A DNA stretch of 64,000 bases from Candidatus Omnitrophota bacterium (GTDB lineage: Bacteria; Omnitrophota; Gorgyraeia; Zapsychrales; JANLHA01): contig JACKFI010000001.1 in assembly GCA_020632555.1 (NCBI GenBank), forward strand, positions 133,152 through 197,151, read 5' to 3'. This document shows positions 9,022-63,051 of this stretch, piece by piece. Every line of letters begins with the position of its first letter. Within the stretch, counting starts at the first letter, position 1. Under the pieces are notes generated by a model that had not been told where the DNA came from, searched no databases, and saw only the letters and a program-made list of their open reading frames with translations. The position numbers and the translations under genes are program-made.

Positions 9022-9030
9022 TTTCTCTAT

Positions 9031-26765: not shown

Positions 26766-26877
26766 CACAAGAGAGATTTAAATCTATATTGCTCCCTACT
26801 AAAAGAAAGCGTCATTGGATATAACGGCTATGTCCAATCATATCCAATTATTGAATCTTTCCATGAGATTTGAAACG

Positions 26878-26895: not shown

Positions 26896-26918
26896 TACCG
26901 GCAGGCAGGTGTGCCAAG

Positions 26919-31560: not shown

Positions 31561-32306
31561 TTGACCTCTTTGGTTCTCACCGGAACGACTTGACCCGATA
31601 CTCCTAAGACAATCGTACTTCCCGGTGATTGTAAAGCTCGCAATTGCAATAACGCAGGATTGTCTTCCAACACTTTAGAAACATTGGCCAAATTGCGCAA
31701 AGACGCGGTTTCTCCGCGGGCACGTTCCAATGCCGCCAACCCTTCTTTTTGCGCCTCAACAACCTTAGCAAAGATTTTCTTTAATTCACCCGGAAACATA
31801 ACGTCCTTAACGCCGATGAGCGTAATTTTTAAACCGATTTCCTTCGCTTTGGCAACCGTCGCTTCCATCAACTTTTGATTAATCGTTGCTCGCTGTGCCA
31901 AAACCTCATCGATCGCTAAAGAGCCAATGATGTCACGAACTGCCAATTGTACCACCGCGTATAAAGCCTCGGTGTAACTAGCGATCTTATTAACGGCGAT
32001 GTTGGCATCTTCGATCTCATATTGCGCCGTAATGCTGACCTTTAAGGACACATTGTCCGAACTTAAGACTTCCTGCCCCGGGATCGTGATGACTCGAGGA
32101 CGAACATCGATCTTAACGATGATCGTATTCTGAGAAAACTTAAAATAACGACCCGGTTCCAAAATTCCGACAAATTTTCCCTTGCGATATTTTAAACCCT
32201 TCTCATATTCAAGAATAGTGACAAAATATTTTGCACTAAAAACCGCAATGACGACCCAACCGATAAAGCCGAGCACCGCCATGCTTACTAATGTTGATAA
32301 TGTCAT
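31557..32306 (-). CDS. SPFH/band-7 (stomatin/slipin-like) membrane protein
   Basis: 249 aa. N-terminal TM helix. SPFH core VDVRPRVITIPGQEVLSSDNVSLKVSITAQYEI, then a coiled AKVVEAQKEGLAALERARGETA segment. Confidence 0.85.
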   Translation of the reverse strand: MTLSTLVSMAVLGFIGWVVIAVFSAKYFVTILEYEKGLKYRKGKFVGILEPGRYFKFSQNTIIVKIDVRPRVITIPGQEVLSSDNVSLKVSITAQYEIEDANIAVNKIASYTEALYAVVQLAVRDIIGSLAIDEVLAQRATINQKLMEATVAKAKEIGLKITLIGVKDVMFPGELKKIFAKVVEAQKEGLAALERARGETASLRNLANVSKVLEDNPALLQLRALQSPGSTIVLGVSGQVVPVRTKEVK

Positions 32307-32602
32307 TTCTTTCTCCTTTTGTTTTTAAAAGTTCTGTCTTAAAAAAATTGTAGAATCGCAGTGGAGGTTGTTGACCTGCAAGACGGCTTTTCTACGAGCA
32401 ACTTTCTTAAGACAGAACGTGGGGATTTGAACCCCTCGGATTACTCCTTGACCAGGGCGAGCGTTTATCTGCAAAATGATATGGCCGATGCCATGTCATC
32501 GCACTGGATTCGCTCGCATATTTTTTTATCCCAATTTTTGCTAAAGGATTTTGCTTTTGGTAAATTGGGATTACGCAAATTTTTTCTATCGAAAATCTGC
32601 CT
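32307..32602 (-). ncRNA. Structured non-coding spacer between rtcB and the SPFH gene, with a tRNA T-arm-like motif (candidate ncRNA or tRNA remnant)
   Basis: No ORF. On the minus strand: 10-bp hairpin ATCCCAATTT/AAATTGGGAT (32528-32571); 7-bp stem GCGAGCG/CGCTCGC (32457-32517); exact T-arm GGGGTTCAAATCCCC (rc of 32421-32435); 12-bp stem GTTCTGTCTTAA/TTAAGACAGAAC (32331-32342 with 32407-32418) followed by TTTT. Confidence 0.35.
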
Positions 32603-34120: not shown

Positions 34121-34163
34121 TTGTTTTTCCCTTATATTGCCCCTTTCCTTTATCGTTGCTTAA

Positions 34164-34192
34164 AGCATACCCTATCCAAAGCCAAATGTCAA
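34164..34192 (-). promoter_or_regulatory. sigma70-type promoter candidate for rtcB
   Basis: Minus strand reads TTGACA (rc of 34187-34192), a 17-nt spacer, then TATGCT (rc of 34164-34169), about 45 nt upstream of the rtcB ATG. Confidence 0.4.
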
Positions 34193-34243
34193 ATTTATTT
34201 TTATTTTCTTGTATAAATGTTTATCCTGTGATATATTTATACC

Positions 34244-35842
34244 ATGAATACAAAAATTGCTATTGGGCTACTTGGGACAACCCTCGATCAAGGGAAAGAT
34301 GAAAATCGCTGGAACAAGTGGCGTCCGACCATCTCCCTTTTTCAGCACGAAGACCTCTTGATCCATCGTTTTGACTTGCTATACGAAAAAAAATTTCAAG
34401 ATCTTGCCGAGCAAGTTATTTCTGACATCAAATCCATCTCCCCTGAAACCAGAGTTGTGCCCCACATTATTGAAGTGAAAGACGCGTGGGATTTTGAGAA
34501 TATGTACAGCGTCCTTTTTGACTTTGCCCGCAATTATCCTTTTAATATAGAGAAAGAAGAATATCTCATCCACATCACCACCGGATCGCACGTAGCGCAA
34601 ATTTGTGAATTTCTTTTAACTGAAAGCCGATACTTCCCAGCTAAACTCATCCAGACCTCCCCTTCCAAAACCGAAGGCTTTAAAGGCGAATACCGCATCA
34701 TTGATCTTGACCTTTCTAAGTACGACAACATCGTCAAGCGATTCCGTAAAGAACAAAGAGAAAATTTATCATTTCTTAAATCCGGGATAGCGACTCGCAA
34801 TAGTAAATATAATCGGCTCATTGAACAAATCGAACGCGCGACGATCAACTCTAATGCCCCGCTTCTTCTCACCGGCCCGACCGGTGCCGGAAAATCACAT
34901 CTTGCCCGACAAATTTTTGAACTCAAAAAGATTCACAACCAAATCAAAGGCCAATTTATCGAAGTCAACTGCGCGACTCTGCGCGGAGAAATGTCGGCCT
35001 CCACCCTTTTTGGGCATGTCAAAGGAGCATTTAACTGCGCCATCAAAGACCGAATGGGATTATTACGCGAAGCCAATGAAGGGGTTTTATTTCTCGACGA
35101 GATTGGAGAATTAGGGATCGATGAGCAAGCCATGCTTCTTAAAGCATTGGAAGAACAAAAATTCTTGCCCATCGGCAGCGACGAGGAAGTTGAAAGTAAA
35201 TTTCAGTTAATTGCCGGGACGAATTTAGACCTTGGCATTGAAGTTGATAAAGGCAATTTTCGCACCGACCTCTACTCCCGAATCAATCTTTGGACATTCT
35301 CATTGCCTTCTCTTAAGGACCGTCCTGAAGATATCGATGCCAACATTGAATTTGAATTAGAAAAGTTTTCACAAACACACAATATCAACGCCACCATCAA
35401 TAAAGAAGCCAAAGATGCCTATTTGAAATTTGCGACATCAGAGAAAGCATTATGGAAAGCGAACTTCCGTGACTTGAATGCCTCCATCATTCGCATGACC
35501 ACATTAGCCGACGGCGGGAGAATCAATATTGAACTTGTGCAGGAAGAAATTGACCGGTTAAATAAACTTTGGAAGAGAAGCGAAGATACTCAAGAAGCGG
35601 AGATACTCGAACGTTTACTAACTCAAGAACAACTGCAAAAGCTAGACCGGATTGAAAAAATCCAATTGATTGAAGTTATAAAGATTTGCCGCGAATCACG
35701 CAACCTGTCTGAAGCCGGCCGCATTTTATACAATGCTTCCCGCACACTCAAATCAAGCACCAATGACGCCGATCGACTTAAAAAACTTCTCGCCCGCCAC
35801 GATCTATCCTGGGACCAAATTAAAAACGCTTCCGTACTATGA
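34244..35842 (+). CDS. rtcR: RtcR: CARF-domain / AAA+ bacterial-enhancer-binding-type regulator of the rtc operon
   Basis: 532 aa, divergent from rtcB. N-terminal ~185 aa RtcR-type CARF region. Walker A LLTGPTGAGKSHLA. LFLDEIGELGIDEQAMLLKALEE. C-terminal HTH. The L1 loop reads GAFNCA (35024-35041) instead of GAFTGA. Confidence 0.9.
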   Translation: MNTKIAIGLLGTTLDQGKDENRWNKWRPTISLFQHEDLLIHRFDLLYEKKFQDLAEQVISDIKSISPETRVVPHIIEVKDAWDFENMYSVLFDFARNYPFNIEKEEYLIHITTGSHVAQICEFLLTESRYFPAKLIQTSPSKTEGFKGEYRIIDLDLSKYDNIVKRFRKEQRENLSFLKSGIATRNSKYNRLIEQIERATINSNAPLLLTGPTGAGKSHLARQIFELKKIHNQIKGQFIEVNCATLRGEMSASTLFGHVKGAFNCAIKDRMGLLREANEGVLFLDEIGELGIDEQAMLLKALEEQKFLPIGSDEEVESKFQLIAGTNLDLGIEVDKGNFRTDLYSRINLWTFSLPSLKDRPEDIDANIEFELEKFSQTHNINATINKEAKDAYLKFATSEKALWKANFRDLNASIIRMTTLADGGRINIELVQEEIDRLNKLWKRSEDTQEAEILERLLTQEQLQKLDRIEKIQLIEVIKICRESRNLSEAGRILYNASRTLKSSTNDADRLKKLLARHDLSWDQIKNASVL

Positions 35843-37346: not shown

Positions 37347-38471
37347 ATGCATCTTAGAAAACTAACCAAAAGTTTTATTGAAGAAACTCTCGACGAAGAA
37401 ATGACCCAATATCAACAACGAGAAAAACATCAGCGGTTAAAGAAAATGATCGATTACCGAAACGGACATTATCAACGCAACCTCGATACGACCATCGGCC
37501 CTCTTGATAATATTGCCGTTCCGCGTTCACGAAGCGGACTATTTAAACCTACGGTTTTTAAGCGTTACCAAAGACGCCAAGAAGCTGTTAACACCGTCAT
37601 CTGCAATGCCTTCCTGCGCGGCATATCCACCCGTGAAGTCGCTGGCGCTTTAAAACCAATCCTTGACACCAACATCTCCGCTTCCGCCGTCTCACGAATA
37701 ACAAAATCTTTAAATGCCCAAGTTAAAGCATTCCATCAACGTCAACTGCTCGACGAATATCAGTTTTTATTCCTAGACGGTATTGCTATCTCAGTCAAAG
37801 GAGCGCTTAAAGCCAAGAAAATTCTTGTCCTAACTGCTTATGGCATTACGATCTTCGGTAAAAAAGAGCTCATCGCCTTTAGAATCTCTAACAGCGAGTC
37901 AAATCAAGCCTGCGAAGGATTTTTAAATGATCTATTTAAACGCGGCCTGCAAGGCAAAAACCTTAAATTGATTATCACCGACGGGTCCAAAGGCTTTATT
38001 AACGCCGTCGACCTCGTTTACCCTCACGTCAAACATCAGCGCTGCTGGGTTCATAAACTTCGTAATTGCACTAAACATCTTAAGAAATGCGATATTGATG
38101 CATTTAAAAATGATGCCCGCAAGATTTACAATGCCTCGACTCATCGAGATGCTGTCGCGGCTTTTAAGAGTTTACGCCAACATTGGGTCAAAGATTATCC
38201 GCAAGTTGTCAAACTCATCGAACAGGATTTAGATAGTCTTTTGGCTTTTTTAGAAATTCCAATCAAGGAACAATACCGCGAATTTATCCGTCGTCGAATT
38301 CGTACAACCAACATCATCGAGCGTTCATTCCGGGAAATCAGACGCCGCACCAGACCCATGGGATGTTTTGCAAATATTGATAGCGTCAGCAGGATTATTT
38401 ATGCGATATTTAATCGCTTAAACACCAAATGGCAGGAGAAACCTTTAACCCAATTTACACAATTTATTTGA
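37347..38471 (+). mobile_element. IS256-family (mutator-type) transposase gene; IS ends not delimited
   Basis: 374 aa. FLFLDGIAISVK, IITDGSKGFINAVDLVYPHVKHQRCWVHKLRN, TTNIIERSFREIRRR (DDE region). N-terminus somewhat short for the family. I could not identify convincing terminal inverted repeats. Confidence 0.8.
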
Positions 38472-38549
38472 CATTACCGCAAATTGAAAGGTGCGGTTAA
38501 AACAAGAAAACCCCGTCTCTCCTCGACGGAAAACAGGGTTTTATATTGG

Positions 38550-38563
38550 TTGCGGGGACAGGA
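38550..38563 (-). repeat. 14-nt duplicate of the tRNA-fMet 3' end
   Basis: TTGCGGGGACAGGA is identical to 38731-38744 (discriminator, 3' acceptor strand and start of the T stem), 181 bp from the intact gene. It runs directly into the palindrome CCTGCCTACCGGCAGGCA (38564-38581). Confidence 0.6.
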
Positions 38564-38695
38564 CCTGCCTACCGGCAGGCAAGTTTGAATGGTTTCGCGG
38601 CTTCGCTTACGCTCAACCATTTCCTCGCCTAACGGCTCGGTCACCTGCGCTCGCTTTCGCTCGCTGCACGTCCATTCACCCATCCCACTAATAAA

Positions 38696-38725
38696 TTAAG
38701 AAGGCCCCAATTGGGGCCTTCTTAA
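38696..38725 (-). terminator. Rho-independent terminator downstream of tRNA-fMet
   Basis: Perfect 30-nt palindrome TTAAGAAGGCCCCAATTGGGGCCTTCTTAA, 6 nt after the tRNA 3' end, followed on the minus strand by TTTATT. Confidence 0.7.
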
Positions 38726-38730
38726 TTTAA

Positions 38731-38804
<74 letters not shown>

Positions 38805-38827
38805 GCTATTCTTAGTAATAATATCTT

Positions 38828-39040
38828 GAGGTAGCCGCGGCACTTCCTCGGGTATTAAGCGTCTGTCGGCCTCGCCACGGTGGGCTCGGCACTCCTTCGC
38901 ACTTTACGTGCTCAGTCGCCCGCTTTGGTACTAAATACATCTTAATATAACGGCGGCACTTCCTCGGGCATTAAGCGTCTGTCGGCCTCGCCACGGTGGG
39001 CTCGGCACTCCTTCGCACTTTACGTGCTCAGTCGCCCGCT
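38828..39040. repeat. GC-rich tandem repeat, two ~96-bp copies with 116-bp period, immediately 5' of tRNA-fMet
   Basis: CGGCACTTCCTCGGGYATTAAGCGTCTGTCGGCCTCGCCACGGTGGGCTCGGCACTCCTTCGCACTTTACGTGCTCAGTCGCCCGCTTTGGTACTA occurs at 38828 and 38944, nearly identical. A degenerate related stretch lies at ~38585-38690. Confidence 0.85.
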
Positions 39041-39084
39041 TTGGTACTAATGCTATCTTTTGATACTATAAATATCTTTAAATC

Positions 39085-39225
39085 TTTATGCAGATCCCCA
39101 ATAAAATCCTTCGGGGATGACAACTAATTAGGATTGCCGCGCCCCTTCGGGGCCCGCAATGACAAATCTTTTCGATTTGGTTCTCGTCGAAAAGGGACTC
39201 ACTGCGTTCGCAATGACAACACTTC
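39085..39225. repeat. Three hairpin units each ending in ATGACAA (small REP/MITE-like family)
   Basis: ATCCCC..CCTTCGGGGATGACAAC; ATTGCCGCGCCCCTTCGGGGCCCGCAATGACAAA; ..CACTGCGTTCGCAATGACAACA. An inverted relative, CTGTCATCCCCGAAATTTTTTATCGGGG, lies at 37129-37157. Confidence 0.6.
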
Positions 39226-45974: not shown

Positions 45975-47996
45975 TTAAGGACGATGTTGAAGTTTTTTCT
46001 CGAGGGTTTGCAATTGCAGTTCAATTTTTTCAAAGGTCTGATCTTGTAAGCGCATTTGATTGTTCTGCTCTTTGAGCGCGCCGGTTAGAACCGCGGTAAT
46101 GCCCATCGGATCAACACTTCTGCGACCTTCTTCAGCGACGAACTCCGGAACATCTTCGGCAATAAACCCGACGTGATGTTCCTCATGATTGACTTTATAA
46201 TTATAAGTCACAGGCTGCAATTCTTTGACCACTTCTAAAGCTTGGCGGGTATCTAATGGATAGATATGCTCTTTATACTCGCGGCTGGATAAAGTCATCC
46301 ACGTTCCAACATCGTCCAAATGCGCATTATTACCAAAATGCAAAGGGTAGGCCGGATCAGGTCGTCCAACACCAATTCGACCATTATTTTTAACCATAAA
46401 AATATCTCCAGCGGTTGCGGAGTTCTGTGAAGTCACAGCAAAAAAATCGTCCCCATTATTAATTTTTATATCTAAAATCGCACTGGGCGCAGTGTTACGA
46501 ATACCGAATTTGGGATTATTGGTACTGGGCGCAATAATAAACGCATCCGAGGCTGAAATCGAAACAGCTGATATGGAATACCCCCACACAAAAGATCGAT
46601 TTGCGCTATTAATCAAATTCATATAACGTCCTCCTGCCCATGAATAATCGCCCAAAACCGTATTATTTCGACCATTGCTAATGACTGAATAATTTCCTGA
46701 AACATCATTATTCACACCACCAACAACTATTGAAGAACGTCCAGCCCTATTATTAGCCCCTCCCCAAATAACCGCATAATCCCCAGATGTCACATTTCCT
46801 GTTCCACCCATAATCGCCGACCAAGAGCCATTAACTGTATTGCTCCTGCCTCCATCAATCACTGAATACAAACCATTCGCGGTATTGGTCAATCCTCCCG
46901 CAATAAATGAATAACTCGCCAACGCATTATTTGATTGCCCCCCGCCGACCACAGCATAAGGACCAGCTGAATTTTGACAACCGCCACTGACCACAGAATA
47001 AATACCGGGATCGTGATGCAATGTGCCGCCGGAAATAGTAAAATAATCGGCCGCAACAGTTTTGGTCGGATCCGTTAAACAATTTGGAAAAACCCATTGC
47101 GCATTATTACTACTGCCGCCGGTGATCGTCGCACCGACTCCTGCCGCAACATTACAAGAACCACTAAAAACAACATTATAATCATTTCGTGTTTGGCTTG
47201 ATTCTCCACCGACAACAGAAGCTCTCCCCTGCACATCACTTCGCTCACCCCAATTGACAGCATACTGACTGAAAACATCTGTTTTTAAACCGCCCAAATT
47301 AGCTGAATAATCTCCGGAAGCTTTTGAATACCGTCCAAATGCAACTGCAGCTAACCCACTGGCCTTAATATTGTCTTTACCTAAAGCAATTGAATAATCG
47401 CCAATATTGCCATCATTCCAAGCATCGGAAAAATCTTCTTCCCCCCAAAAATGCGTTAAATGTCCAACACGAAAAGCCGCTTTACGAGGATACCAAATCA
47501 TTTGCACCGCCCCTTCAAAACTAGACTCAGCAATAGCAGGCAAGTCAGGCAAAAGTTGGCCACTGCCCAATTGCCCCATCGCTAAAATACCGCCATCATT
47601 TTCTAAAGTCAGCTTGAATTCCGGAACAGTCGTGCCAATACCCACAAAAATATTGGGATTGGTGACTATCGCAGTTGGAAAAACATCATTGCCCGACTGG
47701 GTCCAAGAGCTTTCCAACAATGTCCATTGTCCATTTCCACTGCCATCATCAAAACAATAATGCAATTGATCTGTCCCCTGCTTAACAGACAATGTCCCAA
47801 GCGCACAAGGGGTGGATAATACTTGCGGCAATAAAGTCACTCGATCATAAGCGCCTTGCGGTGCCGGATAATATGTCGTTAATGTAAGACTCTCAGCCAA
47901 CGCAGACAAAGAACTCAATACAATCAAAGCGACGCTGATCGCCCCAATTTGAATTGAGCGTAAAAAACCATCGTCTCTGTGCTGAGCCTTTTGCAT
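45975..47996 (-). CDS. Secreted tail-fibre-like Gly-rich beta-helix repeat protein with C-terminal peptidase-S74 / intramolecular chaperone domain (paralog 1)
   Basis: 673 aa. Signal peptide ..LSALAESL. N-module TTYYPAPQGAYDRVTLLPQ..C..G..C. Many GGxxNxaxGxYSxixGG repeats. C-terminal LSSREYKEHIYPLD..LQPVTYNYK..HVGFIAEDVP then a coiled coil. Confidence 0.75.
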   Translation of the reverse strand: MQKAQHRDDGFLRSIQIGAISVALIVLSSLSALAESLTLTTYYPAPQGAYDRVTLLPQVLSTPCALGTLSVKQGTDQLHYCFDDGSGNGQWTLLESSWTQSGNDVFPTAIVTNPNIFVGIGTTVPEFKLTLENDGGILAMGQLGSGQLLPDLPAIAESSFEGAVQMIWYPRKAAFRVGHLTHFWGEEDFSDAWNDGNIGDYSIALGKDNIKASGLAAVAFGRYSKASGDYSANLGGLKTDVFSQYAVNWGERSDVQGRASVVGGESSQTRNDYNVVFSGSCNVAAGVGATITGGSSNNAQWVFPNCLTDPTKTVAADYFTISGGTLHHDPGIYSVVSGGCQNSAGPYAVVGGGQSNNALASYSFIAGGLTNTANGLYSVIDGGRSNTVNGSWSAIMGGTGNVTSGDYAVIWGGANNRAGRSSIVVGGVNNDVSGNYSVISNGRNNTVLGDYSWAGGRYMNLINSANRSFVWGYSISAVSISASDAFIIAPSTNNPKFGIRNTAPSAILDIKINNGDDFFAVTSQNSATAGDIFMVKNNGRIGVGRPDPAYPLHFGNNAHLDDVGTWMTLSSREYKEHIYPLDTRQALEVVKELQPVTYNYKVNHEEHHVGFIAEDVPEFVAEEGRRSVDPMGITAVLTGALKEQNNQMRLQDQTFEKIELQLQTLEKKLQHRP

Positions 47997-48011
47997 ATTT
48001 TTATCCCTGTC

Positions 48012-50006
48012 TTATTTCTCTAACCTTGTCCGCAATACTTTAATTCTTTCTTCAATCAGCTGAATCTTGTGTTCCCGTTGTTCAATTTCAGATTGTTGAT
48101 TTTGAACAACCTTGGTTAAAACGGCAACAATATCCATTGTGCTCAAAGTTTTGCGGTCTTTAACCGCAACTAAACTCGGAACATCTTCGGCAATAAATCC
48201 AATATTCGTATGATCAGGATCATTTTTATATTCAAATGTAACCGGATTTAATTGCTCAAAAGCTTGCTGGGCATCTGCTCCTGTCAGCGGAATAATATTT
48301 TCTTTAAGCTTGCGGCTAGATCCATTTTCCCAGGATCCTCCAGAACTCACATAAGCCCCATTGCCAAACTCCATTGCATAAGTAGGATTTGTTGGCATTA
48401 TTTTTTGGCTGCCAATATAACCATTTCTTTTCACAATAAAAACATCCCCAGAAGTTATTTTTCCCAAAGCCAAGAAATTATCAGCAGTTCCGTTGGCATT
48501 AACTTCTAAAACACCAACCGGATTAGTATCCCTGATCCCAACTCTGGGATTCCAAACAACTCCGCCAATCGTTCCCGGCGCAATAATAAATGCATCCGGC
48601 ACAACAATAGAAACCGCTGTATCAGAATATCCCCACGCAAAAGTTCGCTGCGCGGTACTTGTCAAATTCATAAAACGTCCCCCAGCCCAAGAATAATCGC
48701 CATCTACTATATTGTCCGTCCCACCCATGATCGTAGAATACCCGCCGTAAGCTCTGTTTCGCTCACCCCCCGCGATCACAGAATAATTATAGCTAGCATC
48801 ATTTTGCCACCCACCACCTATAATCTGGCCGAAACCTCCGCGAATCACATTCGTGCGTCCACTAGAAATAAACGAATACCTATTACCAGTTAAAATGGAA
48901 TTGCTGTCCCCACCGGAAATTCGCACATATTCACCAGCTGGACTAAACACAGAAACGTATTCACCGGTTTTATTCGCCAAGCCACCGCCAATGCTTGAAT
49001 AAGGTCCCTCAACAATATTGCCCTCACCCCCCAAAACAATAGAATAATCAGATCTGACTTTATTGTCCTTACCCCCACCAATCAGCGAATACCCCGTCGG
49101 AACACCAAAATCAGTAAAATCAATTAAATTATTAAAACCACCATTGATGTTTGAATATGGAATTGTGACACGATTTTGTGCCCCGCCGGCAACAACACTA
49201 TAAATCGCAGTGGCCTGATTATCTAAACCCCCAAGAATCGCAGAAAAATCTCCGGAAACCACATTGTTTTCTCCACCCCAAAGTGCCGCATATCGACCAC
49301 TGGCCATATTGTCCTTGCCACCGCCAACCGCTGAAAAATCCGCACTGGCCGTGTTCCTAAATCCACTGCCAACCACAGAATATAATGCACTGGCAATATT
49401 TCCATCGCCGCCGCCGATAGCTGAATAATGTCCACTGGCCCTTGTATTCTTTCCAAAAGCCGTGGAATAATTGCCGATATTCCCATTGTCCCATTGAGCC
49501 CCATCAACATAACCGGCGCGAATCGCGGCTTTACGCGGATACCAAATAAACCGGCTGCCCGCTCCTAAATTCGGCAAGGTCGCGCCACTGCCAAATGTCC
49601 CCTTAGCCATAATCCCGCCATCTTTTATTAAAGTCAGTTTTGAATCCGGCGTGTTGGTCCCAATCCCAACACGCAATAAAGGATTGCTCAAAGTATCTTT
49701 CAAATAAATATCATCATTCGTTTGCATCCAAACATCACTAAGCGCTTCCCACGCACCATTACCGCTGCCATCATTGTGACAATACTGAAGACTCCCCAAA
49801 GAATTCACATACAAAGATCCAATCGGACAAGCCGCAGTCAAGTCTGCGCGTGGCAGTAAACGAAAAGTGTCATATTCCCCTACCAATGAAGGATAATAAA
49901 TATCCATTTTCATTTCTGGGCTCGCCTGCGCAACGGGGACAAACACAAATCCCGTACAAATGAGGAGAAGAATTAGGAAAAGTTTTTTTGAATTATTTAT
50001 CATCAT
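48012..50006 (-). CDS. Secreted tail-fibre-like repeat protein with C-terminal S74 chaperone domain (paralog 2)
   Basis: 664 aa. Signal peptide ..PVAQASPE. DIYYPSLVGEYDTFRLLPR. Same repeat core. C-terminal GSSRKLKENIIPL..LNPVTFEYK..NIGFIAEDVP. Confidence 0.75.
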   Translation of the reverse strand: MMINNSKKLFLILLLICTGFVFVPVAQASPEMKMDIYYPSLVGEYDTFRLLPRADLTAACPIGSLYVNSLGSLQYCHNDGSGNGAWEALSDVWMQTNDDIYLKDTLSNPLLRVGIGTNTPDSKLTLIKDGGIMAKGTFGSGATLPNLGAGSRFIWYPRKAAIRAGYVDGAQWDNGNIGNYSTAFGKNTRASGHYSAIGGGDGNIASALYSVVGSGFRNTASADFSAVGGGKDNMASGRYAALWGGENNVVSGDFSAILGGLDNQATAIYSVVAGGAQNRVTIPYSNINGGFNNLIDFTDFGVPTGYSLIGGGKDNKVRSDYSIVLGGEGNIVEGPYSSIGGGLANKTGEYVSVFSPAGEYVRISGGDSNSILTGNRYSFISSGRTNVIRGGFGQIIGGGWQNDASYNYSVIAGGERNRAYGGYSTIMGGTDNIVDGDYSWAGGRFMNLTSTAQRTFAWGYSDTAVSIVVPDAFIIAPGTIGGVVWNPRVGIRDTNPVGVLEVNANGTADNFLALGKITSGDVFIVKRNGYIGSQKIMPTNPTYAMEFGNGAYVSSGGSWENGSSRKLKENIIPLTGADAQQAFEQLNPVTFEYKNDPDHTNIGFIAEDVPSLVAVKDRKTLSTMDIVAVLTKVVQNQQSEIEQREHKIQLIEERIKVLRTRLEK

Positions 50007-50008
50007 AT

Positions 50009-51943
50009 TTACTCAAAGTGCCTGTTTAATTGCTCTAGCTCATTTAATAAATCTTCACTTTTTTGCTTCTGTTGCTCAATTTTCTCTTGTTGATAAGCAA
50101 CAACCTTGGTTAAAACCGCAGCAATATCCATTGGGGCTAATCCTTGGCGTTGTTTTTGAACAACCAAAGCAGGAACATCTTCGGCAATAAAACCAACATA
50201 TTCTTCATCTTTTTGTAATTTATAATTAAACCGTACCGGATTTAAACCACGCAATGTTTCTAAAGCTTGATCCAGGTCCAAAGCCGTAATATTTTCTTTA
50301 TATTCACGACTTGATGAAGGCATGAATTTACCACTGGCATCAACATAGGCACCGTTACCAAAATCCATAATGTATTGCGGATTACTCTTATTAACCCCAA
50401 TGCAACCATTGCAACTGCCGCCTTTCTTGATGGTAAAAATATCACCCACAACAGAACTAGAGTTGCTGGTAAAGTTTAAATAATCATCCGCAGAATTATT
50501 GCCATTAATTTCCAACCCAGCGGCAGGAGTTATATCGCGAATACCCATTCTGCCAGAATAAATGATAAAAGCATTGGCTGTCGAAATATCTGCAGGCGCT
50601 GCAGAATATCCCCACAAAAAAGTATTATTAGCCCCAGTGGTCAATCTCATATTTCGACCAGCAACAAATGAATATGGGCCAACAATAGAATTATCAGCCC
50701 CACCGGCAATCATCGAACAATCAGAAGCCGCCTCAACCCTATTGAGCTTACCCCCCATAACCGTTGCATAAGGACTCAAAACGCCATTGTCTTCTCCTGC
50801 GCCAATCACAGAATAATCCTGACTCACAGTATTTCTATGCCCACCACCGACGACCGAATAAAGACCCTGAACAAGATTATCACTGCCGCCGGCAATAACC
50901 GAATACTGTCCAGAAATAACATTTGACTTCCCACCGGAATTAACAGAATATGAAGCGCTGGACGAATTTAAATGCCCCCCCGCAATAACAGTCCGATCCG
51001 TTACATTGACAAAGGTGTTGGCCCGACCGCCGCTAATGACCCCATAACTGCTAACCTGACTTGGCGAAAAAGAATTATCCCCACCACCTGAAATTATTTG
51101 ATAATCATAATAAGTCTTATTATTGTTCCCACCCGCAATAATTCTAAAACGAGAATAATTATCCGACCCGCGCGGGTGAGAATTATCTCTCCCTCCGCCG
51201 ATATCAGACCACACGTCCCCCGCACTATTATTAAAACCGGCTAGTCCTCCCTCCCAACAATCATCACGGCAAACATTGTTTTCTCCACCAAGAATAATTC
51301 CGCCCTTAGCTGCATTCGATTTACCTCCTAAAATCATTCCCCATCTGGCATCGTTATTCTCGCCACCTAAAACAAACATCCCTCTGCTGCCATATCCCAT
51401 AACTACACTGCCTGGATCAATATTCCCAACATCCCATTCATTCCCGGCAGCATACCCGGAACGAAAAGCTTTTTTCGATGGAATCCACATCAAGCGCGTA
51501 CCGGCTCCCGCAGTAACTAAGGCTGTCCCACTGGCCCAACTGGGCGTAAACCATCGCGATAAAATTCCACCATCACCGGCGAGCGTTAACTTAAACTGCG
51601 GCATCATTGTTCCAATCCCAACTTTTTTAGCTGCTGGATTCGTCGTATCGGCAAGATGGAGATTGTCTCCTGTCAATACCCACGTACCAGAGACAAGCAC
51701 GTATTTAGAAAACGGAGTGTCCTTAACACAATAATAAAGTCTGCCTAGGTCTGTCGCATTGGCATACAATGTACCAACAGGACAATTTGTATTTGGAGTA
51801 ATAGCTGGCTGAGGATTTAATCTGAGTTTGCTGTAATTTCCCGTTGGAGCAGGATAGTAGGACGTCATTTCCAAACCGCTGCAAGCTGCACAGGCGATAA
51901 ACGCGAACGAAAAAAACAAATATGCTGAAAATATTCTTCGCAT
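50009..51943 (-). CDS. Secreted tail-fibre-like repeat protein with C-terminal S74 chaperone domain (paralog 3)
   Basis: 644 aa. Signal/lipobox-like FIACAACSG. TSYYPAPTGNYSKLRLNPQ. Same repeat core. C-terminal PSSREYKENITALD..LNPVRFNYK..YVGFIAEDVP. 2-nt gap to paralog 2. Confidence 0.75.
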   Translation of the reverse strand: MRRIFSAYLFFSFAFIACAACSGLEMTSYYPAPTGNYSKLRLNPQPAITPNTNCPVGTLYANATDLGRLYYCVKDTPFSKYVLVSGTWVLTGDNLHLADTTNPAAKKVGIGTMMPQFKLTLAGDGGILSRWFTPSWASGTALVTAGAGTRLMWIPSKKAFRSGYAAGNEWDVGNIDPGSVVMGYGSRGMFVLGGENNDARWGMILGGKSNAAKGGIILGGENNVCRDDCWEGGLAGFNNSAGDVWSDIGGGRDNSHPRGSDNYSRFRIIAGGNNNKTYYDYQIISGGGDNSFSPSQVSSYGVISGGRANTFVNVTDRTVIAGGHLNSSSASYSVNSGGKSNVISGQYSVIAGGSDNLVQGLYSVVGGGHRNTVSQDYSVIGAGEDNGVLSPYATVMGGKLNRVEAASDCSMIAGGADNSIVGPYSFVAGRNMRLTTGANNTFLWGYSAAPADISTANAFIIYSGRMGIRDITPAAGLEINGNNSADDYLNFTSNSSSVVGDIFTIKKGGSCNGCIGVNKSNPQYIMDFGNGAYVDASGKFMPSSSREYKENITALDLDQALETLRGLNPVRFNYKLQKDEEYVGFIAEDVPALVVQKQRQGLAPMDIAAVLTKVVAYQQEKIEQQKQKSEDLLNELEQLNRHFE

Positions 51944-56951: not shown

Positions 56952-57024
56952 AGCTGGCGGTCAGGGTTGAACTGACGGCCTGCGCATTACGAATGCGCTG
57001 CTCTACCGACTGAGCTACGCCAGC
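56952..57024 (-). tRNA. tRNA-Thr (CGT)
   Basis: rc = GCTGGCGTAGCTCAGTCGGTAGAGCAGCGCATTCGTAATGCGCAGGCCGTCAGTTCAACCCTGACCGCCAGCT. All four stems pair. Anticodon loop TTCGTAA. Confidence 0.9.
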
Positions 57025-57483
57025 GAATTACCTTAAAATAATCAAAACAAACCTTAAGAAAAATTCGCCAGTACTGTTTTCCTTATATCTTTTTACAGAA
57101 AAAACAGTGCGCCAGCAAACTTCCACTAAACTTACAAAATTTACCCTTAGAACAGTTTGCCAGTACTGCCTTCTACTTTTACTATCTTGAGAAGGCATGT
57201 ACGCCAGCGAATTACCTTAAAATCATCAAAACAACCTTAAGAAAAATTTGCCAGTACTGTTTTCCTTATATCTTTTTACAGAAAAAACAGTGCGCCAGCA
57301 AACTTCCACTAAACTTACAAAATTTACCCTTAGAACAGTTTGCCAGTACTGCCTTCTACTTTTACTATCTTGAGAAGGCATGTACGCCAGCGAATTACCT
57401 TAAAATCATCAAAACAAACCTTAAGAAAAATTTACCAGTACTGTTTTCCTTATATCTTTTTACAGAAAAAACAGTGCGCCAGC
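57017..57483. repeat. Tandem repeat, about 2.6 copies of 183-184 bp, starting inside the 5' end of tRNA-Thr
   Basis: ACGCCAGCGAATTACCTTAAAAT recurs at 57017, 57201 and 57384. Each unit holds two ~91-bp sub-units: a hairpin (ACTGTTTTCC..GAAAAAACAGT or TGCCTTCT..AGAAGGCA) bracketed by GCCAGTACTG and CGCCAGC, then an A-rich spacer. Confidence 0.9.
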
Positions 57484-57503
57484 ATTTACATCAAATTTTT
57501 CGC

Positions 57504-57650
57504 GGGAAACCGGGACATCACCCACCGAACAACATTGCACCAAACTAAAAAAAAAGAATGGTGCCGAGACTAAGGGATTGTTGTGGGAAACCGGGATTTC
57601 ACCCACCGAACAACAAAGCACCAAACTAAAAAAAAGAATGGTGCCGAGAC
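57504..57650. repeat. 81-bp tandem duplication carrying the 3' end of tRNA-Phe
   Basis: GGGAAACCGGGAYWTCACCCACCGAACAACAWWGCACCAAACTAAAAAAAA(A)GAATGGTGCCGAGAC occurs at 57504-57570 and 57585-57650. The second copy runs into the intact tRNA; the first ends in a 12-nt tRNA 3' fragment. Confidence 0.85.
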
Positions 57651-57714
57651 CCGGAATTGAACCGGGGACGCACGGCTTTTCAGGCCGTCGCTCTACCGAC
57701 TGAGCTATCTCGGC
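57639..57714 (-). tRNA. tRNA-Phe (GAA), CCA encoded
   Basis: rc = GCCGAGATAGCTCAGTCGGTAGAGCGACGGCCTGAAAAGCCGTGCGTCCCCGGTTCAATTCCGGGTCTCGGCACCA. All stems pair. Anticodon loop CTGAAAA. Confidence 0.9.
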
Positions 57715-57973
57715 ACAACTGCTGCTACAAATAAAAGGTTGCTACCTTAGAAGTTTTGCTTTGAATAGCTTTTGTCCCGCTTGCGGGACTGAGCTACTCA
57801 AGCGTTTGCATCTAAATCTTTTCTGAGAAAACGCCAGTGCCGCACAATTAGCGGCGCTCGGCACAACTATCTTTTAAGATATTAAATCCAAATCAAAGAC
57901 CAGTGATTCTATCCAACCTCATCCCAAATGTCAACCGCGAAAGCCCACAACGACCACCGCGACACAATCACAA

Positions 57974-59376: not shown

Positions 59377-62300
59377 TTACAACTTGGGCGAAAGAACAAT
59401 AACGCCAGATTTTACAGTACTGGTATCCTGATCTTGCGGATAAGCCGCAACAACCGTATCTCCACTTAAAGCAATACTCTGCCCAAAATTGAGAATACCG
59501 GCTCCTGCTAAATTATACGCCCAGGCAAAAGAATTATTGGCCTGACGTTTAAAAACAATCACTGAATCCGTTGTATGTATCGAACCTAACGAGAAGGTTT
59601 TAGGATGCATCGCAACGGCGACAGTATTGTCTTTGGCCGTAAGGCTGATAATCGCACTGCTCGAATGCCACGGCAAGCTTAAGCGAGAATACGATGTATT
59701 CCACGTGCTAACCGGCGCTCCATACGGAGCATTGCGCATTTCATTAAAAATAAAAACATTACTCAAAAGAGTAATATCAGGAACAGCACTCAACGCAACA
59801 ATAAGCTGATGACCAACAACCTTGGTTGCCGTCAAAACAGCCTCAGCATTCTGCGGCGTTAATAACCCTATCTCTTGACCAAAATTAGCTATATCGTTTT
59901 CATACGTTTTTTCTAATGTCCAGAGACCTTGTCCTTTGTAACGATAGATAAAGATTTTACTCTTTTCGGTTTCCGAAGCTTTGGGCGCGCCAACTGCAAT
60001 AATCCCATCACCGACAGCTACCGATTGAGCAAATTGAACTTTACCAGCTTCCACTCCAGACAACTTCAATGTGGCCGCATAAGCCCATGCACCATTGTTA
60101 CGACTGATCACATACACAACTTTAGCCGACGGTAAAGAAACCGCCAAGCTGTCTGACGAAAGAGCCAGTTTCATATTACTAACTAAAGCTGGATCTAAAT
60201 TATCAATTTTACTAAGATCCAATTTATTGCCAGCTTGAACCCAAGCATTATTAACTTTGGAGAAAAAATAAAGACTGCTCTGCGCTTGCACAACCAACGC
60301 ATCTTTATTAGCCGCCAAAGTCTTGCCAAACTGATCACCATCTGCCAAACCTACAGGCGCGATAATCGCGGGCACAGGCACAGACTGTGTTGCATCAACA
60401 GGCATGCTCTTATATTGATAAACAACACCTTTGCCATTAACACTAGGGGCTCCGACGAATAATTCATTGCTCTCTTGCAAAACAGCAACGCTTTGCGCAA
60501 AACCAATGTTAAACTGCGGCGTTGCCAAACGGCCTGCTGACAGATTATCCAAATTGCTATAATACTCACCAACCGTGATTTTATCAGCTGGCTTTTTTAT
60601 AGCAGCAATAAATGAATCCATCACAAATTTTGCTTTCGCAGGATCTTTTAATGCCCAAATATTTTGAAAATACTTATTCATTGCATACTTTGTGTTCCAA
60701 AGCATTTTACTATCATAATAGTTACCAACGTTTGTTTTATCTGCCGGATTAAGAACTACGGCTATAATGGATTCCATCACAAACTTCTCTTTGGCAGGAT
60801 CCTTCGCCTGCGCCAAAATCGAAACATAACTATTGATTGCCGCTTGAGCTTTAAGCACAGCCGTTTGATCATAATACTGCCCAATTGTGGTTTTATCCGC
60901 AGGATTTAAAACTGTGGCCAACAATGATGTCATCACAAACTTCGCCTTAGCTGGATCTTCGTTCCCAGCCGATAAAACTGTGAAATAATTGTCAATCGCG
61001 ACTTTCGCTTTTGTCACCGCCACTTGATCCAAATACTGACCAATTGCGGTTTTGTCGGCAGGATTTAAAACTGTGGCCAACAATGATGTCATCACAAACT
61101 TCGCCTTAGCTGGATCTTCGTTCCCAGCCGATAAAACTGTGAAATAATTGTCAATCGCGGCTTTCGCTTTTGTCACCGCCACTTGATCCAAATACTGACC
61201 AATTGCGGTTTTGTCGGCAGGATTTAAAACTGTGGCCAACAATGATGTCATCACAAACTTCGCCTTAGCTGGATCTTCGTTCCCAGCCGATAAAACTGTG
61301 AAATAATTGTCAATCGCGGCTTTCGCTTTTGTCACCGCCACTTGATCCAAATACTGACCAATTGCGGTTTTGTCGGCAGGATTTAAAACTGTGGCCAACA
61401 ATGATGTCATCACAAACTTCGCCTTAGCTGGATCTTCGTTCCCAGCCGATAAAACTGTGAAATAATTGTCAATCGCGGCTTTCGCCTTTGTCACCGCCAC
61501 TTGATCCAAATACTGACCAATCGCGGTTTTGTCGGCGGGATTTAAAACCGTCGCAATCACTCTATCCATAACCAATTTTGCATTAACTGGATTTTGTACC
61601 GCAGCCAATAAAACCTGAAAATAATTATCAATTGTAATTTTAGAATTTGTTACCGCAGATTGATTGTAATAATCTCCAACAATCGCTTTTTCTGCAGGAT
61701 TCAAAACTGCAGCAATAGCCGAATCCATCGCCAGTTTTGCTTGCGCTGGATTTTTGGTAACAATCAACAATGTCGCAAAATAATCATCAATCGCAGCTTT
61801 AGCTTTATTAACAGCCATCTGAGACATTCCAATGCTGTAATAATTTGCAACAATGGTTTTGTCAGCAGCATTAAGAACCGTCGCCATTACAGCCTCCATA
61901 ACAGCTTTTGCCGTTGCTGGATTTTGCCCAGCGGCCAAAGCAGAAAAATAATTATCAATCGCAACTTTGGCCTTCACAATAGCTGTTTGGCCGTAATAAT
62001 TATTAACAATAAGTCTATCCGATGGATTAAGAACCGCCGCCATAGCGGCTTCCATGACAGTTTTCGCTATTGCTGGATTTTGCGCAGCCATCAAAGCAGA
62101 AAAATAATTATCAACCGCAGCTTTGGCCTTCACAATAGCCGTTTGGCCGTAATAATTATTAACAATAAGTTTATCTGATGGATTAAGAACCGCCGCCATA
62201 GCGGCTTCCATGACAGTTTTCGCTATTGCTGGATTTTGCGCAGCCATTAAAGCAGCAAAATACTTATCAATCGCCGCTTTGGCCTTCACAATAGCCGTTT

Positions 62301-63051
62301 GGCCGTAATAATTATTAACAATAAGTCTATCTGATGGATTAAGAACCGCCGCCATAGCGGCTTCCATGACAGTTTTCGCTATTGCTGGATTTTGCGCAGC
62401 CATCAAAGCAGCAAAATAATTATCAACCGCCGCTTTGGCCTTCACAATAGCTGTTTGGCCGTAATAATTACTAACAATAAGTTTATCTGATGAATTAAGA
62501 ACCGCCGCTATAGCGGCTTCCATGACAGTTTTCGCTATTGCTGGATTTTGCGCAGCCATCAAAGCAGCAAAATACTTATCAATCGCAGCTTTGGCCTTCA
62601 CAATAGCTGTTTGGCCGTAATAATTACTAACAATAAGTTTATCTGATGGATTAAGAACCGCCGCCATAGCGGCTTCCATGACAGTTTTCGCTATTGCTGG
62701 ATTTTGCGCAGCCATCAAAGCAGCAAAATAATTATCAACCGCCGCTTTGGCCTGAATAATAGCTGTTTGACCATAATAATTATTCACGATAGATCTATCT
62801 GCCGTGTTAACTACGGCAGCCATGGCCTGATCCATTGCAACCTTAGCTGCTGATGGATTCTGTCCACTCAACAAGACGCTAAAGTAATTGTCAATAGCCA
62901 CTTTAGCAGCTTCGACAGAAGTCAACTGCACTGCTGTCCCCACACTTGAACTTTGAGCATACACCATACTGGGCAATGCCAGCATGCCAAAACCAGCGCA
63001 CGCTCCCAACAATACAACAACAACCTTCTTAACCAAACTCTTTCGATTCAT
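59377..63051 (-). CDS. Large secreted repeat protein: about 15 tandem 52-54-aa helical repeats plus a C-terminal FG-GAP-like beta-propeller region
   Basis: 1224 aa. Signal peptide ..PSMVYAQ. Repeats of the form AKAAIDNYFxxLxAxxxPAxAKxVMxxxxAxVLNPxDKxxxxxYYxQxAxxK. C-terminal ~390 aa has FAQSVAV..VGAP, FGKTLA, FAQSVAVGDGIIAVGAP, FGQEIGL, FGQSIALSGDTVVAAYP. Confidence 0.8.
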   Translation of the reverse strand: MNRKSLVKKVVVVLLGACAGFGMLALPSMVYAQSSSVGTAVQLTSVEAAKVAIDNYFSVLLSGQNPSAAKVAMDQAMAAVVNTADRSIVNNYYGQTAIIQAKAAVDNYFAALMAAQNPAIAKTVMEAAMAAVLNPSDKLIVSNYYGQTAIVKAKAAIDKYFAALMAAQNPAIAKTVMEAAIAAVLNSSDKLIVSNYYGQTAIVKAKAAVDNYFAALMAAQNPAIAKTVMEAAMAAVLNPSDRLIVNNYYGQTAIVKAKAAIDKYFAALMAAQNPAIAKTVMEAAMAAVLNPSDKLIVNNYYGQTAIVKAKAAVDNYFSALMAAQNPAIAKTVMEAAMAAVLNPSDRLIVNNYYGQTAIVKAKVAIDNYFSALAAGQNPATAKAVMEAVMATVLNAADKTIVANYYSIGMSQMAVNKAKAAIDDYFATLLIVTKNPAQAKLAMDSAIAAVLNPAEKAIVGDYYNQSAVTNSKITIDNYFQVLLAAVQNPVNAKLVMDRVIATVLNPADKTAIGQYLDQVAVTKAKAAIDNYFTVLSAGNEDPAKAKFVMTSLLATVLNPADKTAIGQYLDQVAVTKAKAAIDNYFTVLSAGNEDPAKAKFVMTSLLATVLNPADKTAIGQYLDQVAVTKAKAAIDNYFTVLSAGNEDPAKAKFVMTSLLATVLNPADKTAIGQYLDQVAVTKAKVAIDNYFTVLSAGNEDPAKAKFVMTSLLATVLNPADKTTIGQYYDQTAVLKAQAAINSYVSILAQAKDPAKEKFVMESIIAVVLNPADKTNVGNYYDSKMLWNTKYAMNKYFQNIWALKDPAKAKFVMDSFIAAIKKPADKITVGEYYSNLDNLSAGRLATPQFNIGFAQSVAVLQESNELFVGAPSVNGKGVVYQYKSMPVDATQSVPVPAIIAPVGLADGDQFGKTLAANKDALVVQAQSSLYFFSKVNNAWVQAGNKLDLSKIDNLDPALVSNMKLALSSDSLAVSLPSAKVVYVISRNNGAWAYAATLKLSGVEAGKVQFAQSVAVGDGIIAVGAPKASETEKSKIFIYRYKGQGLWTLEKTYENDIANFGQEIGLLTPQNAEAVLTATKVVGHQLIVALSAVPDITLLSNVFIFNEMRNAPYGAPVSTWNTSYSRLSLPWHSSSAIISLTAKDNTVAVAMHPKTFSLGSIHTTDSVIVFKRQANNSFAWAYNLAGAGILNFGQSIALSGDTVVAAYPQDQDTSTVKSGVIVLSPKL
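60902..61537. repeat. 4 x 159-bp nearly identical in-frame tandem repeats inside the 1224-aa gene
   Basis: GGATTTAAAACTGTGGCCAACAATGATGTCATCAC.. recurs at 60902, 61061, 61220 and 61379. Only about 1-6 nt differ between copies by eye. Confidence 0.9.
61972..62751. repeat. 5 x 156-bp highly similar in-frame tandem repeats inside the 1224-aa gene
   Basis: CATAGCGGCTTCCATGACAGTTTTCGCTATTGCTGGATTTTGCGCAGCCAT recurs with a 156-bp period (for example 62041 and 62197). Encodes repeat copies 2-6. Confidence 0.9.

Follow-up and report, generated by a model that had tools for sequence, protein, structure and literature searches.

Higher-order tandem amplification of a tRNA-Thr leader module in the tRNA-Phe–tRNA-Thr spacer of an Omnitrophota bacterium

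The tandem array investigated in this study is located on a stretch of 64,000 nucleotides from a Candidatus Omnitrophota bacterium (GenBank assembly GCA_020632555.1, contig JACKFI010000001.1, positions 133,152 to 197,151), to which we refer as the window, and it occupies most of the 614-nt gap between the genes of tRNA-Phe and tRNA-Thr. The array represents the tRNA-Thr(CGU) 5'-leader module amplified as a higher-order tandem repeat in the internal spacer of the two genes. Its origin by tandem amplification of this module is well supported. With respect to its role we favour, at an intermediate level of confidence, a reading in which the amplified module is co-transcribed with the tRNAs and in which, as predicted by thermodynamic models, it would compete with the folding of the acceptor stem of pre-tRNA-Thr.

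Results

Nested anatomy of the array

Analysis with Tandem Repeats Finder (TRF) places the array at positions 57016-57484, with a period of 183 bp, 2.6 copies in the assembled sequence, 98% matches and a score of 910, and the three 183/184-bp copies differ from each other at only 3-4 positions. The same span scores also at a period of 92 bp (5.1 copies, 67% matches). Both periods agree with an initial annotation made from the sequence alone, which had described 2.6 copies of 183-184 bp, each composed of two diverged sub-units of about 91 bp, which we term types A and B. In window coordinates, the array begins within the first 9 nt of tRNA-Thr, and its half-units share the first 7-9 nt of this tRNA (9 nt in B-type units, GCTGGCGTA, and 7 nt in A-type units), which bears out the earlier observation that the copies restart with the 5' end of the tRNA. 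The proposed unit pattern CCAGTACTG-N-RYRCGCCAGC matches five times in the array, nowhere else in the window and not once in 100 dinucleotide-preserving shuffles. We also concur that the array does not resemble clustered regularly interspaced short palindromic repeats, since its 'spacers' are themselves repeated at about 98% identity.

On the tRNA strand, ten CTGG(C/T) sites (at 57482, 57438, 57390, 57346, 57298, 57254, 57207, 57163, 57115 and 57071), to which the true 5' end of the tRNA has to be added, follow each other at distances that alternate between 44 and 48 nt. Five of them are GCTGGCG pseudo-starts of the tRNA, in accordance with the at least five sites previously recognized upstream of tRNA-Thr, and these are interleaved with five ACTGG(C/T) sites, which makes the anatomy finer than initially annotated. 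The two kinds of sites delimit two kinds of segments, each present five times. H segments consist of GCTGGCG(Y)AC, a hairpin of 12-13 bp and GTA, and the leader-like L segments of CTGGCRAA, an A/T-rich hairpin and TTC or TTT. The resulting architecture is nested, with a monomer of about 46 nt (CTGGCR and an A/T-rich hairpin-forming stretch) giving rise to a 92-nt dimer of H and L, which occurs in the two diverged types A and B, and further to a 183-nt tetramer. Identity increases with the period, from similarity at the level of motifs only at 46 bp to 67% at 92 bp and about 98% at 183 bp, and the array thus displays the nested periods with the highest identity at the largest of them that define a higher-order tandem repeat. 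The 183-nt tetramer is its most recently amplified level.

Proceeding towards tRNA-Thr on the minus strand, the array begins with H module A1 (57439-57483), composed of GCTGGCGCAC, the hairpin UGUUUU/AAAACA and GUA and matched by a covariance model of the H modules with 64.2 bits, and L module a1 (57392-57438), which starts with CTGGT and contains an A/T-rich hairpin of the leader type. These are succeeded by H module B1 (57347-57391, 73.1 bits), where GCTGGCGTAC precedes the hairpin UGCCUUCU/AGAAGGCA and GUA, and by L module b1 (57300-57346), where CTGGCAAAC...GTTT forms a closing helix of 10 bp with the next GCTGG. The following units comprise H module A2 (57255-57299, 69.4 bits), L module a2 (57209-57254), H module B2 (57164-57208, 73.1 bits), L module b2 (57117-57163) and H module A3 (57072-57116, 68.3 bits). 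The last one, L module a3 (57025-57071), is the actual 5' leader of tRNA-Thr. Its CUGGCGAAUU forms a continuous helix of 10 bp with AAUUC and GCUGG, the latter being nucleotides 1-5 of the tRNA.

The H segments align with a leader variant located directly 5' of tRNA-Thr in relatives ('type-c', CTGGCG TTTTTTCTTAGAAAAGATTTAGATGTAAAC G) with z-scores that reach 4.5-5.2 relative to composition-matched shuffles, and the hairpin half of each dimer thus looks like a modified copy of the leader rather than a piece of tRNA. This relationship bears on the possibility that the array consists of decayed tandem tRNA-Thr genes, with each 92-bp sub-unit representing a dead tRNA and its spacer. The length of the sub-unit (91-92 bp) would match a tRNA of 73 nt with a spacer of 17-22 nt and its first 7-9 nt equal the 5' end of the tRNA. 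However, ARAGORN and Infernal find no tRNA-like signal and no cloverleaf between 57025 and 57483 even at E<=10, a 3' acceptor strand is missing from the place where it would be expected, the second motif, ACTGGCR, has the same sense as GCTGGCG and would pair with it only through G-U, the sub-unit divides into two halves of about 46 nt that each begin with CTGGC, and the hairpin half resembles the leader instead of the tRNA body. This explanation, which had been among those offered initially, is consequently largely refuted and in our view scarcely credible.

Location within a putative tRNA operon

The array is preceded by tRNA-Phe(GAA) (57639-57714, minus strand, 73.1 bits), whose CCA end is encoded, and followed by tRNA-Thr(CGT) (56952-57024, minus strand, 68.4 bits), whose CCA is not encoded and which carries a T-run 3' of the gene; both were identified by ARAGORN and by Infernal with Rfam. 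A promoter-like sequence upstream of tRNA-Phe, TTGACA-17-TAGAAT (57906-57934, minus strand, 11/12 matches), is the presumed start of a Phe-Thr transcript. It is the only strong sigma-70-like site near both tRNAs, and its equivalent is conserved at the syntenic loci of two relatives (L005 and L132) and visible at those of two others (L006 and L008). A scan for a G+C-rich stem followed by a T-run detected no terminator-like site between the two tRNAs of the window, and no unit of the array contains a sigma-70-like -35/-10 pair on the tRNA strand, nor does the array of L005. With a single strong promoter-like site upstream of tRNA-Phe, none on the tRNA strand of the array and no terminator-like site in between, we infer a Phe-Thr operon of which the array would be an internal transcribed spacer, co-transcribed with both tRNAs.

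The same evidence divides an earlier proposal, according to which the units would be amplified promoters or leaders: the modules are derived from the leader, but they carry no sigma-70-like promoter on the tRNA strand. An array of tandem promoters could have been anticipated from the fact that tRNA genes often have strong or multiple promoters, but it is at odds with the absence of -35/-10 matches on the tRNA strand, and together with an assembly artefact, which is addressed below, we regard it as very improbable. On the antisense strand, the B units contain weak promoter-like sites (TTGCCA-17-TACTAT, 9/12). Two open reading frames (ORFs) on the minus strand of the array (57028-57198 and 57226-57381) were rejected as coding because they lack a ribosome-binding site and because, in a comparison by hand, their peptide is not conserved in the relatives L130 and L131 and their start codon is absent in L005, L006 and L135. 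A scan of Rfam at gathering thresholds and at E<=10 recovered the two tRNAs and no known RNA family in the array. The surrounding DNA is a segment of a bacterial chromosome, which encodes GlgE and amylases, HMG-CoA reductase, enolase, RtcR/RtcB/RtcA and an FtsH-like protease, and no integrase or island was found around 55-59 kb of the window.

Copy number and specificity among relatives

We have obtained syntenic loci of relatives from a scan of genome collections and from look-ups of exact proteins. The order of a gene for a 133-residue protein, the promoter, tRNA-Phe, tRNA-Thr and a TPR (PMT-like) gene is conserved among Omnitrophota relatives, and the Phe-Thr spacer varies in size and content. 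It contains no modules in L008 (17 nt) and L133 (22 nt), two sites in L135-L140 (119 nt), four in L006 (174 nt), seven in L005 (403 nt) and ten in the window (614 nt), and in L130 and L131, which are relatives at about 90%, the contig ends within the array after at least three sites. Homologous modules are located at the equivalent position in independent assemblies (L005, L006, L130, L131, L132 and L135-L140), and the comparison with related genomes, which had been named as a check on the array, thus speaks for it, with 0, 2, 4 or 7 sites found at the same place. As a type of sequence, the array is a genuine and lineage-specific feature.

This conservation is also relevant for the question of whether the array was generated during assembly. 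Assemblers are known to fail at tandem repeats, and the short-read contigs of L130 and L131 end within the array. Yet at least ten independent assemblies contain modules, and the metagenome-assembled genome from which the window derives (locus tags H6753_) is probably a hybrid of Nanopore and Illumina reads from the Shatin activated-sludge set (PMC8518188; BioProject PRJNA648801), as judged from the neighbouring HK-STAS-OMNI-2 locus-tag series.

The specificity of the modules was investigated with a covariance model (R1) built from eight distinct H modules and searched over 206 kb, comprising the window and the relatives. It recovers every module, long and short, with 24-73 bits and on the tRNA strand only, and it finds nothing beyond the modules of the Phe-Thr spacer below E=0.1. 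Within this range, the module family is thus specific to the spacer and not a dispersed element. A dispersed repeat resembling repetitive extragenic palindromes or miniature inverted-repeat transposable elements was rejected, since R1 locates modules in the Phe-Thr spacer only over these 206 kb, in agreement with motif searches. A metagenome scan with the loose pattern GCTGGCG-N-GNACTGGCR-N-GCTGGCG, ranked by low G+C content, returned matches that, where inspected among those listed, were due to chance and mostly located in G+C-rich DNA.

In a neighbour-joining tree, which is based on one gene and weak, the module-free L133 and L008 are placed beside module-bearing lineages, and loss of the modules is thus evidently easy. 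The tree would fit an old origin of the module with easy loss and expansion. Direct evidence of gain and loss through recombination between direct repeats comes from a neighbouring unit of 100 bp that resembles part of tRNA-Phe, which is present in L135, L136, L138, L139 and L140 and absent in L137, with the 133-residue protein being identical in all of them.

Structure of the H and L hairpins

In an alignment of eight distinct H sequences (alignment A1), pairing in the H helix amounts to 89%. Three pairs vary on both sides, one of which is CG in four sequences and UA in the other four, and a shift of the 3' partners by 1-3 columns decreases pairing over the whole tested H structure from 82% to 35-55%. 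The two innermost pairs of the core (columns 22-41 and 23-40) contain eight G-U cells and, by reading of the alignment, the core contains no A-C cells, so that the helix fits an RNA in the sense of the tRNA, whereas the antisense RNA would be mismatched. The H hairpins are stable, with energies between -18 and -29 kcal/mol, and their loops and A/T-rich parts are poorly conserved. When H is folded alone, its flanking GCU(GG) pairs with (CU)GGC, and according to this model self-pairing would hide the GCUGGCG pseudo-starts during transcription.

The L hairpins are closed by a helix formed by CUGGC and 4-5 nt with a complementary 4-5 nt and GCUGG. In the L segment adjoining the true tRNA, this helix contains 9-10 uninterrupted pairs in all five lineages inspected (the window, L005, L006, L135 and L132), and it is found in three mutually compensated versions (GAAUU/AAUUC, GUUU/AAAC and AAAC/GUUU). 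A G at 57066, among the few substitutions that set the tRNA-adjacent copy of the window apart from the other two, makes its L helix perfect.

Predicted folding of pre-tRNA-Thr

The consequence of these helices for the tRNA was estimated from partition functions calculated with ViennaRNA. On average, the seven true acceptor pairs form with a probability of 0.97 in L008 and 0.70 in L133, both of which are free of modules, and this value drops to 0.002-0.29 in module-bearing precursors. For the window, it is predicted to be 0.012 if the whole spacer is included and 0.002 if the leader is restricted to its last 56 nt. In these calculations the drop occurs because nucleotides 1-5 of tRNA-Thr and the RNase P site are sequestered in the last L helix and because the GCUGGCG pseudo-starts pair perfectly, by Watson-Crick pairs, with the 3' acceptor strand. 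In the structure of global minimum free energy, it is the most distal pseudo-start that is paired with the 3' acceptor strand of tRNA-Thr. As is known from the general biochemistry of pre-tRNAs, pairing of the 5' leader hinders RNase P, and the leader of tRNA-Thr is predicted to pair across the cleavage site and the first five nucleotides of the tRNA. The calculations support a cis effect of the array on the folding and processing of pre-tRNA-Thr, which would be our best guess for its function, but they do not amount to a proof.

An island between two modules in a relative

In L132, an island of 4 kb (5713-9900) is located upstream of tRNA-Thr between two copies of a short module, GCTGGCG(G/T)CCCGAGAACGGGACTGGCGAATTTTT, the right-hand copy of which is followed by L and then by tRNA-Thr. 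The island contains a DUF3859-like gene, two unknowns, a ParE toxin and a Fic-HTH_17 protein, and no integrase was detected in it. Upstream of the right copy, a TTGACG-17-TATAAA sequence was spotted by hand that the promoter scan does not report.

This arrangement could indicate that the modules are attachment sites used as a landing pad for islands upstream of tRNA-Thr, with the array being the residue of repeated integration and deletion, as the initial annotation had considered in the form of integration or excision scars. Such a role would find a parallel in the Fic-HTH_17 gene of the L132 island, which is cargo of an integrase-bearing island elsewhere, and in the duplicated 3' fragments of tRNA-Phe and tRNA-Met within the window, which resemble classical attachment-site remnants. 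However, L132 is the only case of an island, it lacks an integrase and its flanks are duplications of about 100 bp of the host spacer, as would be expected for an insertion into an existing array of two modules, which explains the island equally well. Of the Fic homologues, one resides in an integrase-bearing island (L145) without tRNA-Thr modules and another beside priA/fmt, equally without modules, and these unrelated contexts lend no support to site-specific targeting. In the window, the array is strictly periodic at 44/48, 92 and 183 nt, without foreign DNA, integrase or island. The reiterated part is moreover the 5' end of the tRNA, whereas tRNA-targeting integrases reportedly duplicate its 3' part. 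Scans of viral contigs for the short module and for the junction from L to H gave no matches, and neither did a blastn search of the whole spacer against phage and plasmid collections. We find no support for integration as the cause of this array and, with the L132 island in mind, retain it as a side phenomenon of low probability, the scar explanation as a whole being quite improbable.

Comparison with known systems

The nearest precedent of the array is found in the repeats of the E. coli tyrT-tyrV operon. Downstream of tyrV (NC_000913.3), 3.1 copies of a 178-bp unit with 95% matches are located on the tRNA strand, each of which ends in the 3'-terminal AATCCTTCCCCCACCACCA of tRNA-Tyr and contains a pseudo T-loop that is broken by G+C-rich hairpins. 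These repeats are classically ascribed to unequal crossing-over between tandem tRNA copies. Both systems are tandem repeats on the tRNA strand inside a tRNA operon, a putative one in the case of the window, and in both every unit combines a terminal fragment of the neighbouring tRNA with hairpins in place of its body. In tyrT, the reiterated end is a processing signal, as the annotated rttR RNA (RtT, Rfam RF00391) ends exactly at the first pseudo-CCA. In contrast, tyrT reiterates the 3' end (19 nt including CCA) downstream of the tRNA, whereas the Thr array reiterates the 5' end (7-9 nt) upstream; the units of tyrT are G+C-rich and retain a remnant of the T-arm, whereas those of the Thr array are A/T-rich and derived from the leader; and only the latter shows the nested 46/92/183 periodicity and the G-U self-complementary junction. 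The RtT covariance model did not match the array at the gathering threshold or at E<=10, and there is no sequence similarity to the tyrT repeats. In light of this mirror-image layout and the failure of the RtT model, the array is not a member of the RtT family.

Other systems share individual features. The 3' external transcribed spacer of leuZ (3'ETS-leuZ) and internal transcribed spacers that act as sponges in E. coli illustrate that transcribed spacers of tRNA operons can yield structured functional RNA via tRNA processing. These sponges are single-copy, pair with Hfq-dependent small RNAs and do not reiterate a tRNA end, which distinguishes them from the repeated Thr array with its reiterated 5' end. 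Higher-order repeats of the satellite type have nested periods in common with the array, which in this case extends over 0.46 kb of an intergenic bacterial region inside a putative transcription unit and does not form a chromosomal satellite. Finally, attL/attR remnants consist of partial copies of a tRNA end beside the intact gene, as is the case for the 3' pseudo-ends of tRNA-Phe and tRNA-Met in the window, and they differ from the strictly periodic Thr array, which repeats a 5' end.

By analogy to these systems, processing enzymes might free H, or H together with L, as stable RNAs of 45-92 nt that act in trans like rtT or the 3'ETS-leuZ sponge. The exact coincidence of the end of rttR with the pseudo-CCA of the first 178-bp repeat after tyrV and the stability and conservation of the H hairpins would be compatible with such a role, and RtT RNAs have been described as released from tRNA operon transcripts (PMC4986893). 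Against this stand the lack of a match to any Rfam family, RtT included, the low conservation of loops and A/T-rich parts and the existence of module-free relatives, and we consider trans-acting RNAs improbable.

Other repeats and neighbouring genes

Partial duplications of tRNA ends are found at all three tRNAs of the window. Downstream of tRNA-Phe there are two trailer units of 81 bp (57497-57638, minus strand; TRF 57504-57668, period 81 x 2.0). The first terminates in a duplicate of the tRNA-Phe 3' end (GTCTCGGCACCA), which follows a pseudo T-arm with a hairpin-interrupted loop. This layout, which equals that of the 178-bp units of E. coli tyrT, is shared by L005 (2615-2720) and L132 (5580-5697), and the trailer units may be a decayed copy of tRNA-Phe or the remnant of an old attachment site. 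Upstream of tRNA-Phe, chimeric pseudo-start modules (57715-57868, minus strand) were identified by repeat analysis, with homologues in L130, L008 and L135. The first consists of GCCGAG, the hairpin CGCCGC/GCGGC, ACTGGCG and a leader of the Thr type, and the second of GCTTGAGTAGCTCAG, the hairpin TCCCG/CGGGA, AAAAGC and the Phe leader. Pseudo 5' parts of tRNA-Phe composed of GCCGAGATAGCTCAG, a GTCCCG..CGGGAC hairpin, AAAAGC and a leader precede the real gene in the window, in L008 (9597-9696) and in L135 (about 1955-2045), and in the window they are recombined with pieces of the Thr type (GCCGAG-hairpin-ACTGGCG-Thr leader).

The third tRNA, tRNA-Met (38731-38804, minus strand), is preceded by a tandem repeat of 116 bp in 1.8 copies (38837-39050), and a copy of its last 14 nt (TCCTGTCCCCGCAA, 38551-38564) follows a hairpin about 180 bp downstream. 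A transposase gene of the IS256/Mutator family (37347-38471) adjoins this region (38540-39050), and the RtT model found no match near tRNA-Met. In their layout, the 3' pseudo-ends of tRNA-Phe and tRNA-Met are much more similar to tyrT units than the Thr array is. Short G+C-rich motifs (TTGTCATTGCG... and GGGGATGACA...) recur upstream of tRNA-Met (39100-39220, minus strand) and form tandem arrays of 18-27 bp in the sister genome L008 (1320-1419, 3803-3960 and 6514-6598), and they seem to represent a distinct family of small intergenic repeats of these Omnitrophota. Directly upstream of tRNA-Thr, a short module that reads GTCCCGAAAACGGGAC TGGCGTTTTT in L005 (2967-2992), or GTCCCGAAAACGGGAC followed by TGGCGTTTTTT (also in L006, 9733-9760), was flagged as terminator-like and might serve as an attenuator in those lineages.

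Repeats are also found in coding regions. An ORF of 1224 residues (59377-63051, minus strand) is made up for the most part of long tandem repeats that keep the reading frame (TRF periods of 156-159, 318 and 477 bp, up to 6 copies, 93-98% identity) and has only weak Pfam matches. Three adjacent paralogues of about 650-670 residues (45975-51943, minus strand) each end in a Peptidase_S74 (endosialidase chaperone) domain, and periodic CTGGC motifs near 49300 are coding sequence of one of them. Further genes include an RNA-repair locus (30547-35842) with RtcA, RtcB, an ORF of 249 residues (31557-32306) and the divergent sigma-54 activator RtcR, and a DUF4172-Fic protein near a nucleotidyltransferase toxin of the AbiEii type (25557-27866, minus strand), which constitute cargo of a defence or toxin-antitoxin type. 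AbiEii/MenT toxins are known to act on the acceptor ends of tRNAs.

Discussion

The nested anatomy of the array can be related to a property of the leader itself. Since GCUGGC is self-complementary via two G-U pairs, the arms of the helix formed by leader and acceptor strand are at the same time direct repeats in the DNA (CTGGCG...GCTGGCG). Located about 46 bp apart, these repeats would promote replication slippage and unequal crossing-over. Such a process accounts for the length of the monomer, the reiteration of exactly the first 7-9 nt of the tRNA and the nested pattern, and it would explain the presence of 0-10 sites among relatives.

In the reading that we favour, transcription from the putative promoter upstream of tRNA-Phe would extend through the array, whose transcript would belong to the pre-tRNA and fold into a chain of hairpins. 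The last L would mask the site cleaved by RNase P along with nucleotides 1-5 of tRNA-Thr, and the GCUGGCG pseudo-starts further upstream would be perfect competitors for its 3' acceptor strand. The array might in this way act in cis on the rates at which pre-tRNA-Thr folds and is processed, braking or buffering its maturation, before the RNA of the array would be cut up by the nucleases that process tRNAs.

Several observations weigh against this reading. The folding calculations assume equilibrium and leave aside co-transcriptional folding and kinetics, the tertiary structure of the tRNA and the processing enzymes. Taken at face value, they describe a harmful effect, and the array could equally be a tolerated nuisance. 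The covariation score of H is equalled in 25 of 500 shuffles and rests on eight sequences from related lineages. The folding energies favour the sense strand (-169.1 kcal/mol, compared with -129.9 kcal/mol for the antisense RNA), but the antisense RNA is also strongly structured compared to shuffles (z -7.0 versus -5.1), and z-scores do not separate the strands. The GUUU/AAAC helix arises automatically when the T-run...AAAC spacer is duplicated along with GCTGGCG, and only the non-automatic alternatives among the versions of the L-closing helix argue for selection. The near-identity of the 183-bp copies and their fast turnover among relatives, including the module-free lineages that the one-gene tree sets beside module-bearing ones, are as expected of a neutral satellite.

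A neutral, tolerated satellite is thus a serious rival, although in our view a rather unlikely one. It would have originated by the same slippage and unequal crossing-over and play no role, with the hairpins and the pairing between leader and tRNA being by-products of duplication or maintained by gene conversion. Besides the high identity and variable number of its copies and the automatic closing helix, the module-free relatives, which evidently manage without it, would be in line with such neutrality. It is less easily reconciled with the compensatory changes in the H stem, whose G-U intermediates fit one strand only, with the L-closing helix in three different compensated versions, with the invariance of CAG.ACTGGC across lineages that share no more than about 70% identity in the neighbouring protein, and with the fact that it is the tRNA-adjacent copy that carries the one helix-perfecting substitution (G at 57066).

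A more far-reaching version of the proposed cis effect, which we regard as speculative and unlikely, would assign to the module the role of an 'anti-acceptor' switch. The conserved leader hairpin would hide the RNase P site and the first five nucleotides, and the amplified bank of pseudo-acceptors would gate or titrate the maturation of the ACG-decoding tRNA-Thr(CGU), as a cis-regulatory device for a single tRNA, with modules that might double as landing sites of islands as in L132. To our knowledge, there is no description of a bacterial tRNA gene that regularly carries a conserved and amplified anti-acceptor hairpin in its leader.

Collectively, the array opens no long-standing question and may prove to be a tolerated satellite, and it resembles the long-known repeats of the tyrT operon more than anything new. 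If the favoured reading of a co-transcribed and amplified leader module is true, it would provide a second, mirror-image example for the tyrT/rtT paradigm, established more than 40 years ago, with the 5' end being reiterated upstream of the tRNA instead of the 3' end downstream. It would also offer a simple molecular reason for such arrays, namely a G-U self-complementary helix of leader and acceptor strand that consists of slipping direct repeats in the DNA. Finally, the relatives would constitute a natural allele series at one orthologous site (0, 2, 4, 7 and 10 sites) for the effects of leader structure and pseudo-acceptors on processing by RNase P and on the folding of a tRNA.

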